Source: Pristiophorus japonicus (taxonomy: Eukaryota). From it: 64,000 nt of DNA. This document shows, one piece after another, positions 16,775 to 59,549 of this stretch (positions are counted from its first letter, which is position 1; each line of letters opens with the position of its first letter). The notes below the pieces were generated by a model that made no database searches, was not told the DNA's origin, and saw only the letters and a list, made by a program, of their open reading frames with translations. A program made the position numbers and the translations under genes. The stretch lies in NCBI RefSeq assembly GCF_044704955.1, contig NC_091980.1, positions 129,022,001-129,086,000 of the forward strand, read 5' to 3'.

Positions 16775-16906
16775 TTAGTCACTCTCGCCCAGGATGTGTT
16801 TGTCAAACAGGTACTCGCCCATCCCATTCTCAGGGGCTCCCAATCTCTTCAAGAAGCTTGGAGATCACATCACCAACTTGATCATTTTCATTTGTTCTTC
16901 CAGATA
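16775..16906 (-). pseudogene. Orphan ferritin exon-4 remnant (slot X, unit 1) with internal micro-inversion
   Basis: Minus strand reads YLEEQMKMI-[inverted [10 protein letters not shown]][24 protein letters not shown]. The 3' flank (16600-16770) matches the slot-X 3' flank at 41125-41315. AATAAA at 16672-16677. Confidence 0.88.
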
Positions 16907-17309
16907 AAATCTTAGAATAGTACAGCATAGGAGACAATTTGGCCCATCGAGTCTGCACTGGTTCTTTCGAAGAGCAATCCGGTTAGTCCCACTCCCCCGC
17001 GCTTTTCCCATATCACTGATTTTTTTTCTCCTTTAGTATTTATCCATATCCACACTGAAGGCTATTATTGAATCTGTATCCACCATCCTATCAGGCCGTG
17101 CATTCCAGATCATAAACATTTGTTATGCAAAAAGGTTTTCCCTCATGTCACCTCTGGTTCTTTTGCCAATCACCTTAAATCTGCACACTCTGGTTATCGA
17201 CCCTTCGACCATTGGAACAGTTTCTCTATCTCAATCCTTCATGATTTTAAACACCTCTATCAAATCTCCTCTTAGCCTTCTCTGCTCTCAGGAGAATATC
17301 ACAAAAATG

Positions 17310-18972
17310 ATCATCATCATCATAGGTAGTCCCTCAGAAGTGAGGAAGACTTGCTTCCATTCTAAAAATGAGTCCTTAGGTGGCTGAACAATTCAATAAG
17401 AGAACCACAGTCCCTGTCACAGGTGGGACAGACAGTCGTTAAAGGAAAGGGATGGTGAGACAAGTTTGCTGCATGCTTTTTCCGCTGCCTGACGTGATTT
17501 CTGCATGCTCTCAGCGATGAGACTCGAGGTGCTCAGCGCCCTCCCAGATGCATTTTCTCCACAAGGCAGTCTTTGGTCAGGCTGTCCCAGGTGTTGGTGT
17601 GGATGTTGCAGTTTATCAGGGAGGCTTTGAGGGTGTCCTTGTAATGTTTCCTTTGCCCACCTTTGGCTTGCTTGCCGTGAAGGAGTTCCGAGTAGAGCGC
17701 TTGCTTTGGGAGCCTCGTGTCTTGCATGCAAACGATGTGGCCGGCCCACCGGAGCTGATCAAGTGTGGTCAGTGCTTCAATGCTGGGGATGTTGGCCTGG
17801 TTGATGACCCTAATGTTGGTGCTTCTGTCCTCCCAGGAGATTTGTAGGATCTTGTGGAGACATCGTTGGTAGTACTTCTCCAGCGACTTGAGGTTTCTAC
17901 TGTACATGGTCAATGTCTCTGAGCCATGCAGGAGGGTGGGTAATACTACAGCCCTGTAGACCATGAGCTTGTTGGTGGATTTGAGGGCCTAGTCTTCAAA
18001 CACTTTTCCTCAAGCAGCCAAGGCTGTGCTGGCGCACTGGAGGCGGTGTTGAATCTCGTCATTAATGTCTGCTCTTGTTGATAAGAGGCTCCAGAGGTAT
18101 GGGAAATGGTCCACGTTGTCCAGGGCCACGCCATGGATCTTGATATTCAAAAAGGAGTTAGATGAGGTCCTTACTGCTAGGGGGATCAAGGGGTATGGCG
18201 AGAAAGCAGGAATGGGGTACTGAAGTTGAATGTTCAGCCATGAACTCATTGAATGGCGGTGCAGGCTAGAAGGGCAGAATGGCCTACTCCTGCACCTATT
18301 TTCTATGTTTCTATGATGATTGGGGACGAGGAGGGTGCACTGTGCGGTGAGGACAGGCTGATGGAGGACCTTTGTCTTACGGATGTTTAGCGTAAGGCTT
18401 ATGCTTTCGTACGCCTCAGTAAATACATTGACTATGACTTGGAGTTCAGCCTCTGTATGTGTGCAGATGCAGGTGTCGTCCGTGTATTGTAGCTCGACAA
18501 GAGACGTTGGGATGGTCTTGGACCTGGCCTGGAGTCGAATAAGGTTGAACAGGTTCCTACTGGTTCTGTAGTTTCGTACCACTCCAGCGGGGAGCTTGTT
18601 GATTGTGAGGTGGAGCATGGCAGCGAGGAAGATTGAGAAGACGGTTGGGGCAATGGCACAGCCCTGTTTGACCCCAGTCCAGACATGGATCATGTCTGTA
18701 ATGATGCCATTGGTAAGGATCATGGCCTGCATGTCGTCGCGGAGCAGGCGGAGGATGGTGACGATTTTTTGGGGGCATCCGAAATGGAGGAGGATGCTCC
18801 ATCGACCCTCGTGGTTGACAGTGTCAAAAGCCTTTGCAAGGTCGAAGAAGGCCATGTATAAGGGCTGGTGCTGTTCCCTGCATTTTTCCTGCAGCTGTCA
18901 CGCTCTAAAAATCATTTCCGTTGTGCCTCATTCGGGGACGAAATCCACACTGTGACTCCGGGAGGAGCTCCT
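17310..18972 (-). mobile_element. RTE LINE, 5'-truncated
   Basis: FFDLAKAFD, GVKQGC, LQYTDD and QLRWAGH motifs; (TGA)n tail at 17310. Confidence 0.9.
18143..18315 (+). mobile_element. Short CR1 3' end nested in RTE
   Basis: GIKGYGEKAG followed by 3' UTR and TTTCTATG tail. Confidence 0.85.
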
Positions 18973-56350: not shown

Positions 56351-56897
56351 ATATAGATGCCAATATATTGAAATTACCACCGCAAAAGAAAAATTATAGG
56401 ACTGTTCCCACCCACAGAAGGGTCAACAACCAGCAGAGATTTAAGGCAAGTGGCAGAAGAATTACAGCTGACTTGAGGAAAAACTTTTAAGCAGTGAGTG
56501 GTTAGTATCTGGATTGCACTGCCCGAGAGGGTTGCAGAGGTAGATTCAATCACTGAATTGGACAAGCACCTGAAGGAAAAAAAAATTGTAGGGCTACAGG
56601 GAAGTGGGACTAGCTGAAGTGCTCTTGCTGAGAGCTGGCATGGGCTCAACAGGCTGAATGGCCTCCTGTGCTGTTACCATTCTATGATTGAATCTCAGGG
56701 CAACACTATTGCATAGCCTAGTACAATACTGGGGCTGTAACCAAGTTATGGCAAATAGAATATAAGCAACCAATCAAACTTGCAAGGAGACAAAACCAAT
56801 CCAATATTGGACTGTTTATTTACAGTTAATTACATTTCACATCAAGAGCCCAGGTCTCAGCCTGTACAAAGCAAAAGTAGAAGAGAATCTCAATTAT

Positions 56898-59549
56898 TTA
56901 GTCACAAGATTCAGTCACTCTCTCCCCCAAGGTGTGCTTGTCAAACAGGTACACTCCCAGGCCATTCTCAGGTGCTCCCAGTCTCTTCAGGTTGGTGATG
57001 TGATCTCCAAGCTTCTTGATCATCTTCACTTGTTCATCCAAGTAGTGGGTCTCCAGGAAGTCACACAACTGAAAGAGGGAAACTAGTTATGACAGCAGCA
57101 GATATGAAGGAACATTGGAGCTTACCCCTGAAAAGTTTGGATTTTAATCCTCTTGAACTGGAGGATAGTCAAGTGGTGCAATTGAAATTTCTGGAATTAC
57201 TGCACCGCATTAAGATGAAAACTTGCTGTACAAAAAGGTGCTTGGATCACAGACACATTTACAATATCTACCCCCAAAAAATAGTCAACACAAAAGCTAT
57301 TGGGCATGGAGATCTTTTTAAATTAGGTTCAAGGACAGCAAGGTTCCACCACCTACAACCTACCCAAAAGGCCCACATTGAAGCATTAGGAACTTACATG
57401 AGGGTCAGTGCTCCCAGTGGAGAGTTTGTGCAGATCCAGCAGACTCTGGTTCACATTCTTCTCCATCTGCAGAGCTCTCTGCATCACCTCCACACCATTG
57501 CTCCACTCATCCTGCTCTGGTTTCTGAAGAGGAAATTCTCATGTTCACTTACAATGTATTGAAGGAATTAGGGCTGAAAAAATGCAATCAGAATTCTAGG
57601 AGACCATGAAGCAATGTGTTAGAATATAGAAATACTGCATTAAGCCATCAACCACTGGAGTCAAATTGATCAGGTGAATAGCACAGATGTATTTAAGGGG
57701 GAGCTAAATCAGAACATGTGGGGAAAAGGGAGAAGGATAGGTTGCTAGATAAAGCAAGGTGGGAGGTGATGTCTAGAGCCTGATCACCAGCATAGACTAG
57801 TTTATCCAAATGGCTGGTTTCTGTGGTTTAAATTGGAACCAACTGCTTTAGAATGATTTGGGATCAATCAGTCTAAGGGGAGCCAGACAGAAGGCCCCTC
57901 ATTTATAGAGCCAAACCTTGATGTCCGCCAAGATGATCTGGCCTCCACGTCGATTCTGGAATTGCATCAGTTTCTCAGCATGCTCACGTTCCTCATGTGA
58001 CTGCTCCTTGAAGAACTCAGCAAAGTGACGCAGGGCAACATCATCCCGGTCAAAGTAGAAGGACTGCGGAGAGATCAGCAGAGTAGTTGTTTATGCAAGG
58101 TAGACCCATTATAATTGGCATTGTATATGAAAGCAAGAGCAATGGGCTTGGCTTTAAGAGCTCAGTCTCATTGAACTTTTATGTAGTTATGGAAAATAGC
58201 CCCAACACAACTAACCTGGTAAAGATAGTGGATAATCTCACCTCCAGCAAAAGGGAAACTGGCAAATGGAAACTTAATGATTTGCAGGGCTATGGGAAGA
58301 GTGGAGGAGTTGTATCGCTCCACCCAACAGACAGCGAGGCACAATGGACTGAATGGCCTCCTGTGCAGCATCATTCCACGATCACCAATTCAGCTTTGAT
58401 TGAACATGCTCAAAACTGGAAACTTAAATCTTGGCACCCAATATTCATTGCAGCTCTGGAAATTAGTGAAAGAATTGCCACAAGATTGATATCCTGGTCA
58501 CCAGTAGCACACTCCAATAATCATTGTTTATTGACACAGATCTATTGTGTGCAGACTAGTTGAAGGGCAGTATTGTAACTCTGAGCAACCCCCTTAAAAG
58601 TAGAGATCTAGTCACAGTGCAGAATTCATATAGAAAAAACAACACTAGTTGAGTTTTACTAGCTAGTTATGCCAAGGAATTAAAACCACAAGCAGCTTGA
58701 ATTTAACACCAAAACATTTGAGAACCAGATGCCATGGAATAAAAGTTATGAGAACCCCTCAGAATTTGAGGTGCTCGGCGAAGTTCACAGGGTAGGAAAG
58801 CAGTGGGGTTAAGGGAGAGGCTACTGAGTACAGACAATTTATGAAGCCTTTACCACCAATAAAGCAAAGAAAGTTAGAGGAAAGACAAAAAAGGGCACAA
58901 GCTAGTATTTAAAAAATTGTTAGAAACACTAGGAACAGGAGGGAAGCAGAAAGATTTGTAACATTTTCATCCCATCCTCCCAGTGGAGGTGAGGGATGGC
59001 TGGGAAAGAAAGTGTAGCAGATTTCCACCACATTTGTGGGAAAGAATACTTCCATTTAGGAAGGAAGTCAGGAGAAGCTGTATTTTTATGACATCACCCA
59101 TTGAACTGGCAATGTAAGGAAAGTCCATGGAATGATTTAGAATGGAGGAAACAAATTCTGAATTCCTCACATTGAGAGCAGAAAGCATTCCAAATAAACT
59201 TCAAGCTCAAGAGCCCAGGAAAGAGTCATTAAGATTCAATATCAGAACATGGTACAGCTGCTGCAAGGAACAGAGAGTTTGTTAATGAGTACACAGGAAG
59301 ATAAATTATAGCTTTAAAAGTGAATTCACTGCATAGATTGGGGGCAGGGGCAGCAGAGAGAAAGAGGTGGGCTGGATACAGCACAGGATTTCATAAATTC
59401 ACATTCCATAGTCTCCATTGTGAAGTACCAAAAAACACAAAACTCACCATAGAGAGATAAACATAGGAGGAATAGAGCTCCATGTTGATTTGCTTGTTGA
59501 CAGCATCCTTACAGTCCTGGTGGTAGTTCTGACACACTCGAGAAGCCAT
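56898..59549 (-). CDS. fth1: Ferritin heavy/middle-type subunit (slot Z, unit 2), 181 aa with frameshift-extended C-terminus
   Basis: Exons 59448-59549 ([34 protein letters not shown]), 57917-58063, 57398-57523 and 56898-57068. An extra 2 nt in a GA repeat near the end gives ...[18 protein letters not shown] at 56815-56820. Confidence 0.9.

Follow-up and report, generated by a model that had tools for sequence, protein, structure and literature searches.

The 64,000-nt window analyzed here (forward strand of contig NC_091980.1, positions 129,022,001 to 129,086,000, RefSeq assembly GCF_044704955.1 of the sawshark Pristiophorus japonicus) contains six ferritin loci, X1, Y1, Z1, X2, Y2 and Z2, in that order on the minus strand and in two collinear units. 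It is very probably a slice of a shark tandem array that has been shaped by duplication, decay and gene conversion limited to exons, and whose intact genes would supply ferroxidase subunits that store iron in the ovary or oocyte. The large, spliced ferritin expansion of sharks is already in print (Sahm et al. 2024, bioRxiv 10.1101/2024.09.09.611499; Yang et al. 2026, PNAS, PMC13214024), and at least one gene of the window (Y2) is already annotated; the expansion is therefore not new, contrary to what an earlier prediction made from the bare letters of this DNA (the original prediction) had implied. The mosaic structure of Y2, the apparent homogenization of exons, the apparently missing iron-responsive element (IRE) and the separate clade formed by the proteins did not turn up in the literature searched; these points are based on quick trees and on six loci.

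In a tblastn search of the whole window with a ferritin query, each of the four ferritin exons was found five times, always on the minus strand, and no further remnant with a meaningful E-value was detected beyond the six loci. Self-comparison showed long collinear blocks with offsets of 25.8–28.8 kb. The best chain matched 7.0–35.1 kb to 34.8–61.6 kb and covered 16.9 kb in 19 blocks at a mean identity of 81.8%, one of the blocks (16123–16599) being a non-orthologous match between young long interspersed nuclear elements (LINEs). The window thus holds two complete multi-gene units and a third-unit stub of ~1 kb (Table 1), in which tblastn found no ferritin exon. The number, strand and X, Y, Z, X, Y, Z order of the loci in the original prediction were borne out by tblastn and by the spacer anchors described below, and its end points were correct, 16775 being the stop of X1 and 59549 the ATG of Z2. 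It had also proposed a three-gene higher-order repeat of ~26 kb with a third unit from 60.6 kb. The two collinear units and the spacer head of the third agree with this, but that head includes no ferritin exon and repetition beyond two units is unproven, so that the label “higher-order repeat” rests on two full units and a stub. Copies at the same position in the unit were closest to each other in the upstream DNA and in intron 1, but not in intron 2 of the Y genes; the division into X, Y and Z types is therefore not a clean one, intron 2 of Y2 being X-type. The array continues past the window, as had been expected: at least 43 distinct P. japonicus sequences of 165–200 aa were present among the matches listed.

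We considered a five-locus reading, in which the lone exon 4 of X1 would be the last exon of Y1. This was ruled out by the intervening spacer and by the 3′ flank of the exon, which is closest to X2, i.e., X-type. Four anchors in the X1–Y1 interval (16909–17115, 19390–19467, 19770–19827 and 20210–20229) match the X2–Y2 spacer in order, with the caveats that the third also matches elsewhere and the fourth is just 20 nt long. Because spacer of the X2–Y2 type lies between X1 and Y1, these are the remains of two genes, giving six loci in all.

Repeat-rich arrays are prone to assembly error, and uncollapsed haplotypes could in principle give the appearance of duplicated units. The probability that this happened here is negligible. 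Jukes–Cantor (JC) distances between units 1 and 2 were 0.107–0.149 in five spacer blocks, and the three unit heads were equidistant (JC 0.095–0.11). Spacer distances of 0.09–0.15 are far beyond allelic divergence, and a divergence of 9–15% identifies the units as old tandem duplicates and not haplotypes. Unit-specific insertions had a clean empty site in the other unit at both loci checked. On all three grounds, the doubt about a haplotype artefact already expressed in the original prediction is upheld. For five of the six LINE 3′ ends compared, the mutual difference was only 0.017–0.054, which dates those insertions to a time after the unit duplication.

Z1, Y2 and Z2 are intact, with four coding exons, GT–AG introns and no internal stops, in agreement with the three open reading frames and the spliced, rather than intronless, genes that had been predicted. 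The coding exons are 102, 147, 126 and 156 nt long in Z1 and Y2; in Z2 the last exon has 171 nt, since a 2-nt insertion close to the stop adds five residues to an otherwise intact gene. The Y2 protein is 100% identical to a UniRef entry from P. japonicus, “ferritin heavy chain B-like” (P0017), in which Pfam recognized the ferritin domain PF00210 at full length (E = 6e-39). The Z1 protein is one residue off P0142 and the Z2 protein ~95% identical to the nearest P. japonicus entries; among 246 fetched proteins, no exact match to either was present, and no direct look-up was made. The residues that we take to form the ferroxidase centre, numbered from the alignment to PDB sequences (E27, Y34, E62, H65, E107 and Q141), are present in each of the three intact genes, and all six are kept in 109 of 125 chondrichthyan rows. 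The ferroxidase centre distinguishes the window proteins from the definition of FTL (light chain), and no light chain occurred among the best 60 PDB sequences. The ratio of nonsynonymous to synonymous divergence (dN/dS) in the three intact pairs was 0.20, 0.26 and 0.39. Judging from their conserved residues, the intact genes should encode H/M-like subunits of the ferroxidase type, which would assemble into iron-storing cages of 24 subunits.

The remaining three copies are dead, each by a different mechanism, as originally noted. In addition to its deletions, X1 has a 25-nt micro-inversion in exon 4 (~16853–16877) with a short inverted repeat on its flanks. Y1 has lost exon 4, carries a TGA at 21250 in exon 2 and a change of the ferroxidase His to Pro, and lacks its TATA box through a 14-nt deletion in the promoter. 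X2 has lost 1 nt from exon 1 and 8 nt from exon 4 and is interrupted by stops at 42235 and 42217 (exon 2) and 41866 (exon 3); no AATAAA was found for this copy.

Y2 is a mosaic of a Y-type promoter and intron 1 and an X-type intron 2. Y1 and Y2 group together at 260 of the 272 informative sites in intron 1, whereas Y2 groups with X2 at 29 of 34 sites in intron 2, where a block of ~175 nt common to Y1, Z1 and Z2 is absent from both X2 and Y2. The gene still sits in the Y slot, between X2 and Z2. Between gene types, exon divergence was ~3–11 times lower than intron divergence, an indication that gene conversion has acted in addition to birth-and-death evolution. Synonymous versus intron difference was 0.12 versus 0.38 for Y2–Z2 (p = 2e-8, but a weaker 6e-4 if a best local intron alignment is used), 0.20 versus 0.40 for Z1–Y2 and 0.095 versus 0.38 for Y1–Z2. 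In exons 2 and 3 of X2 and Y2 it was 0.019 (1 of 52.5 sites) versus 0.21 in the intron between them (p = 2e-4), and for Y1–Y2 the difference was marginal (0.075 versus 0.175, p = 0.04). The control pair, Z1–Z2, had no deficit (0.125 versus 0.133 in intron 1, p = 1.0). Intron divergence was taken from blastn and MAFFT; global intron identities were dropped (shuffle baseline near 0.7). A 2-nt misplacement of exon 4 of X2 has a slight influence on the values for that exon, for intron 3 and for the 3′ part of X2, and none on those for exons 2 and 3 or intron 2.

The original prediction had invoked birth-and-death evolution. Gain and loss of copies is plain, but by itself explains neither the mosaic make-up of Y2 nor why synonymous sites differ so little from type to type. 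It might suffice if purifying selection and codon bias kept the exons alike and Y2 arose from one unequal crossing-over between X and Y: three of the six loci died through independent lesions, dN/dS is below 0.4, GC at third codon positions (GC3, 62–66%) is well above the 40% GC of the introns, and a single crossover would be enough for the switch between introns 1 and 2 of Y2. However, synonymous sites of Z1 and Z2 diverge as fast as intron 1, so constraint alone is insufficient to explain the Y–Z and X–Y deficits; furthermore, the near-absence of synonymous change between X2 and Y2 flanks an intron that differs by 21%, and Y2 keeps its Y position. We therefore consider birth-and-death without conversion rather doubtful, but several points count in its favor and against conversion, including the weaker Y2–Z2 result given above. 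The synonymous counts are small (~52–104 sites), forced intron alignments inflate intron distances, and GC3 lies so far above intron GC that codon constraint could lower the synonymous divergence. All 46 rows from the sawshark and all 20 from Heptranchias had a nearest neighbor of their own species, a clustering that fits turnover or concerted evolution, but that is biased by retrieval and weak for galeomorphs with close relatives in the set.

Iron regulatory proteins (IRPs) bind the IRE and block ferritin translation at low iron. Rfam gave no IRE match at either threshold in a scan run without a positive control, and the loop motif CAGWGH was absent from the 330 nt upstream of Y1, Z1, Y2 and Z2, with the start site placed from the TATA-like motif. 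The Y and Z genes have an upstream block in common, in which CCAAT-type boxes are combined with a TATA-like motif 81–88 nt before the ATG, a distance that would leave a 5′ untranslated region of ~50–60 nt. In Y2, this putative promoter includes CCAAT-type boxes, a GC box seen in Y genes only and TATAAA at −81, and no CAGWGH loop. Elsewhere in the window, two hairpins resemble an IRE, a number expected by chance (mean of 0.53 in simulations, 10% of which reach 2). The IRE-like hairpin at 38913 was rejected: it is at chance level, folds weakly and is not kept in its unit-1 copy. The IRE has apparently been lost, although it might still lie in an upstream non-coding exon. In its absence, the amount of ferritin made would depend on transcription and on the number of gene copies.

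Shark ferritins were the top matches in a search with exon 2 of Z1. Array-type copies were found in at least 13 shark species (P. japonicus and 12 others), several per species, and three sequence clusters comprise 138, 180 and 127 members, with 15 of each among the matches listed. The window proteins are 86–89% identical to array-type proteins of other sharks. Together with the published expansion, this shows a shark-wide and known expansion, and not the lineage-specific one of the original prediction. Two quick trees were built from hand-labelled rows, with support from the Shimodaira–Hasegawa-like approximate likelihood ratio test (SH-aLRT) only and no FTL among the sequences: one of 53 rows, the other of 165 rows (165–200 aa, from the 246 fetched) plus the three window proteins. 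In the 53-row tree, an array clade (SH-aLRT 97) united the window proteins with array proteins of other sharks and with single proteins of a sawfish and a chimaera, apart from an FTH1a group (85), amphibian and reptile M/B chains (89) and a mostly single-copy elasmobranch gene (99). In this tree, whose deep order is unresolved, the array proteins did not group with tetrapod FTH1 and chondrichthyan FTH1a. The array clade is presumably the FTH1b of Yang et al. 2026. A teleost fth1b (one smelt protein) grouped with FTH1a and not with the array, so the shared name FTH1b may not mean orthology.

The mostly single-copy elasmobranch ferritin (P0108, P0109, P0252, P0253, P0254, P0256–P0259) is conserved and distinct from both FTH1a and the array. 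It is a candidate housekeeping M-type gene and probably lies on one chromosome with array-type genes in five species, where both are listed on contigs of the same length; a Leucoraja row labelled FTH1a falls in its clade. Many annotated array proteins of ~265 aa with exons 2–3 duplicated, from several galeomorph sharks (P0003, P0191–P0204, P0247, P0248), are products of fused gene models or else a genuine subtype with an internal duplication. A Scyliorhinus model (P0098), in which a ferritin is joined to a receptor tyrosine phosphatase (PF00102, FN3), gives a hint of the neighbor gene of the array, and four vertebrate-type ferritins under bacterial names (P0090, P0102, P0192, P0289) are probably contamination.

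We propose that an old three-gene block was tandemly duplicated at least twice, probably via unequal crossing-over. Copies would then have died through deletion, nonsense, frameshift and LINE insertion, while exon-limited conversion among many paralogs would have kept the coding sequence alike and made Y2 a mosaic. By analogy with another shark, the array of P. japonicus would probably serve to store iron at high dose in ovary or oocyte, with output set by transcription and copy number instead of an IRE/IRP switch. The oocyte role guessed in the original prediction is in line with the Greenland shark, whose largest ferritin cluster is described as ovary-specific in expression (Sahm et al. 2024). 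Some evidence weighs against this assignment. The ovary specificity comes from one sentence of a preprint on a different shark, and Yang et al. 2026 report fin and blood transcripts from some of the FTH1b copies. The shark ovary is described as enclosed in the lymphomyeloid epigonal organ, so that “ovary” RNA could be from immune tissue. In addition, the Y2 subunit may be impaired by two substitutions, Lys for E134 in the three-fold channel and Cys for R63.

The fin and blood transcripts, the epigonal surroundings of the ovary and the link to ferroptosis proposed by Yang et al. would all suit a mainly somatic role, in protection from ferroptosis or oxidative damage or in immune iron-withholding. 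The immune and iron-withholding roles had been raised in the original prediction, but drew no evidence from the present analysis. We regard such a role as unlikely, given the ovary-specific cluster of the Greenland shark and the statement of Yang et al. that high copy numbers also occur in sharks without extreme lifespan. Even less probable is a largely neutral array, in which a dispensable paralog, its copy number without dosage function, was multiplied by a region prone to recombination and rich in transposons. Half of the loci are dead, dN/dS reaches 0.39–0.55 in some pairs and LINE insertions are many, as this would have it, but multi-copy arrays occur in 13 shark species, the ferroxidase residues are complete in most chondrichthyan rows, and expression of clusters has been published in both studies. 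Returning to an array that serves egg iron, we tentatively suggest a more specific version, which we hold to be possible but short of an even chance: the array would be a distinct chondrichthyan lineage that predates the shark–chimaera split, separate from FTH1a, teleost fth1b and the single-copy gene on the same chromosome, which has shed its IRE, acts from a compact CCAAT/TATA promoter and, as a dosage array kept uniform by exon-limited conversion, loads large yolky oocytes with iron whatever the iron status of the cell. If true, the shark ferritin expansion would be a reproductive trait, and not a longevity or ferroptosis trait. The fine anatomy may remain useful with the expansion itself known: apparent IRE loss, exon homogenization and the separate clade would bear on the regulation and upkeep of the array, and would make egg iron provisioning testable against the ferroptosis–longevity link proposed for the Greenland shark.

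Table 1. Ferritin loci, duplicated units and associated elements in the window (E, coding exon).
Feature	Position	Strand	Remarks
Z1, intact gene, 176 aa	30809..33772	-	E1 33671-33772, E2 32087-32233, E3 31265-31390, E4 30809-30964
Y2, intact mosaic gene, 176 aa	49149..52453	-	E1 52352-52453, E2 50033-50179, E3 49669-49794, E4 49149-49304
Z2, intact gene, 181 aa	56898..59549	-	E1 59448-59549, E2 57917-58063, E3 57398-57523, E4 56898-57068
X1, exon-4 remnant	16775..16902	-	Exons 1-3 and 5′ end of exon 4 gone; internal inversion
Y1, pseudogene, exons 1-3 only	20710..23872	-	E1 23771-23872, E2 21227-21373, E3 20710-20835
X2, pseudogene	41315..44606	-	E1 44506-44606, E2 42194-42340, E3 41816-41941, E4 41315-41462
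Y2 upstream block	52454..52720	-	Conserved in Y1, Z1, Z2; putative promoter, from motifs
Duplicated unit 1	7316..34821	.	~27.5 kb; left limit is start of collinear homology, phase arbitrary; chain to unit 2
Duplicated unit 2	34822..60565	.	~25.7 kb; right end approximate; collinear chain
Third-unit head	60652..61576	.	~0.9-1 kb spacer, then LINE to window end; 89% to 7401-8307
LINE, 3.5 kb, X1 3′ flank	13084..16604	+	Endonuclease and reverse transcriptase (Pfam); empty site in unit 2 near 41118; presumably CR1
Young LINE 3′ fragment	20256..20679	-	In place of Y1 intron 3 and exon 4
Young LINE 3′ fragment	44700..45196	+	Between X2 TATA box and CCAAT boxes farther upstream

The LINE family is represented by copies at 127–3614, 13084–16604 and 61584–64000 and by 3′ fragments at 18143, 20256, 35012 and 44700. 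It includes a young wave with 3′ ends 95–98% alike, the copy at 127–3614 being older (~85%), and several young insertions lie in or next to dead ferritin copies. A decayed retroelement of the long terminal repeat (LTR) type with protease and reverse-transcriptase domains occupies 4847–6988 on the minus strand, and the collinearity of the units ends just to its right. All Y and Z genes are preceded by a block (24213–24900, 34255–35012, 52955–53618 and 60071–60751) that apparently predates the Y/Z split; it had no Pfam match, but resembles the remnant of a Penelope-type retroelement. A 33-bp minisatellite is found at the same place in both units, with 9.3 copies at 26882–27234 and 3.4 copies at 53759–53887. 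Unique insertions, solo LTR-like by eye, lie at 43300–44200 and 47300–48150, one of them in X2 intron 1.

The closest known systems are the ferritin clusters of other sharks. In the Greenland shark, 155 FTL and 179 FTH1 copies were reported, and ~80% of them fall into three clusters that show synteny to the white shark (Sahm et al. 2024). Like the array of the window, these are large, old, tandem clusters; they are from another species, and the gene-level unit, pseudogene mechanisms, IRE and conversion are absent from the ferritin section of that preprint, although its supplements may bear on them. Yang et al. 2026 describe 59 FTH1b genes in two tandem clusters (55 and 4), five of them truncated, and higher FTH1b copy numbers in sharks generally. 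These clusters resemble the window in their tandem arrangement and truncated copies, and the loci of the window are all on the same strand. Terms for sawshark, IRE or gene conversion do not occur in the main text or five supplementary files of that paper, nor a ferritin term in Yang's 2025 preprint, nor FTH or FTL in the accessible text of the Squalomix preprint; at the level of listings, literature searches returned nothing on IRE loss, conversion or a sawshark array. In NCBI and UniRef, array-type proteins of P. japonicus go under the names “ferritin heavy chain B-like” and “oocyte isoform-like”.

Human H ferritin (1FHA) and bullfrog M ferritin (1MFR) were full-length matches to the window proteins (E ~1e-84 and 3e-82, respectively) and share their ferroxidase residues and four coding exons. 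Identity to vertebrate H and amphibian M chains is 68–76%, and the array differs from these in forming a separate, multi-copy clade with no upstream IRE found. An X-linked ferritin heavy chain family is reportedly among those with gene conversion. The mammalian FTHL17 genes are likewise multi-copy and linked to the germ line, but are intronless and largely without ferroxidase activity, whereas the genes of the shark array are spliced and keep the ferroxidase residues.

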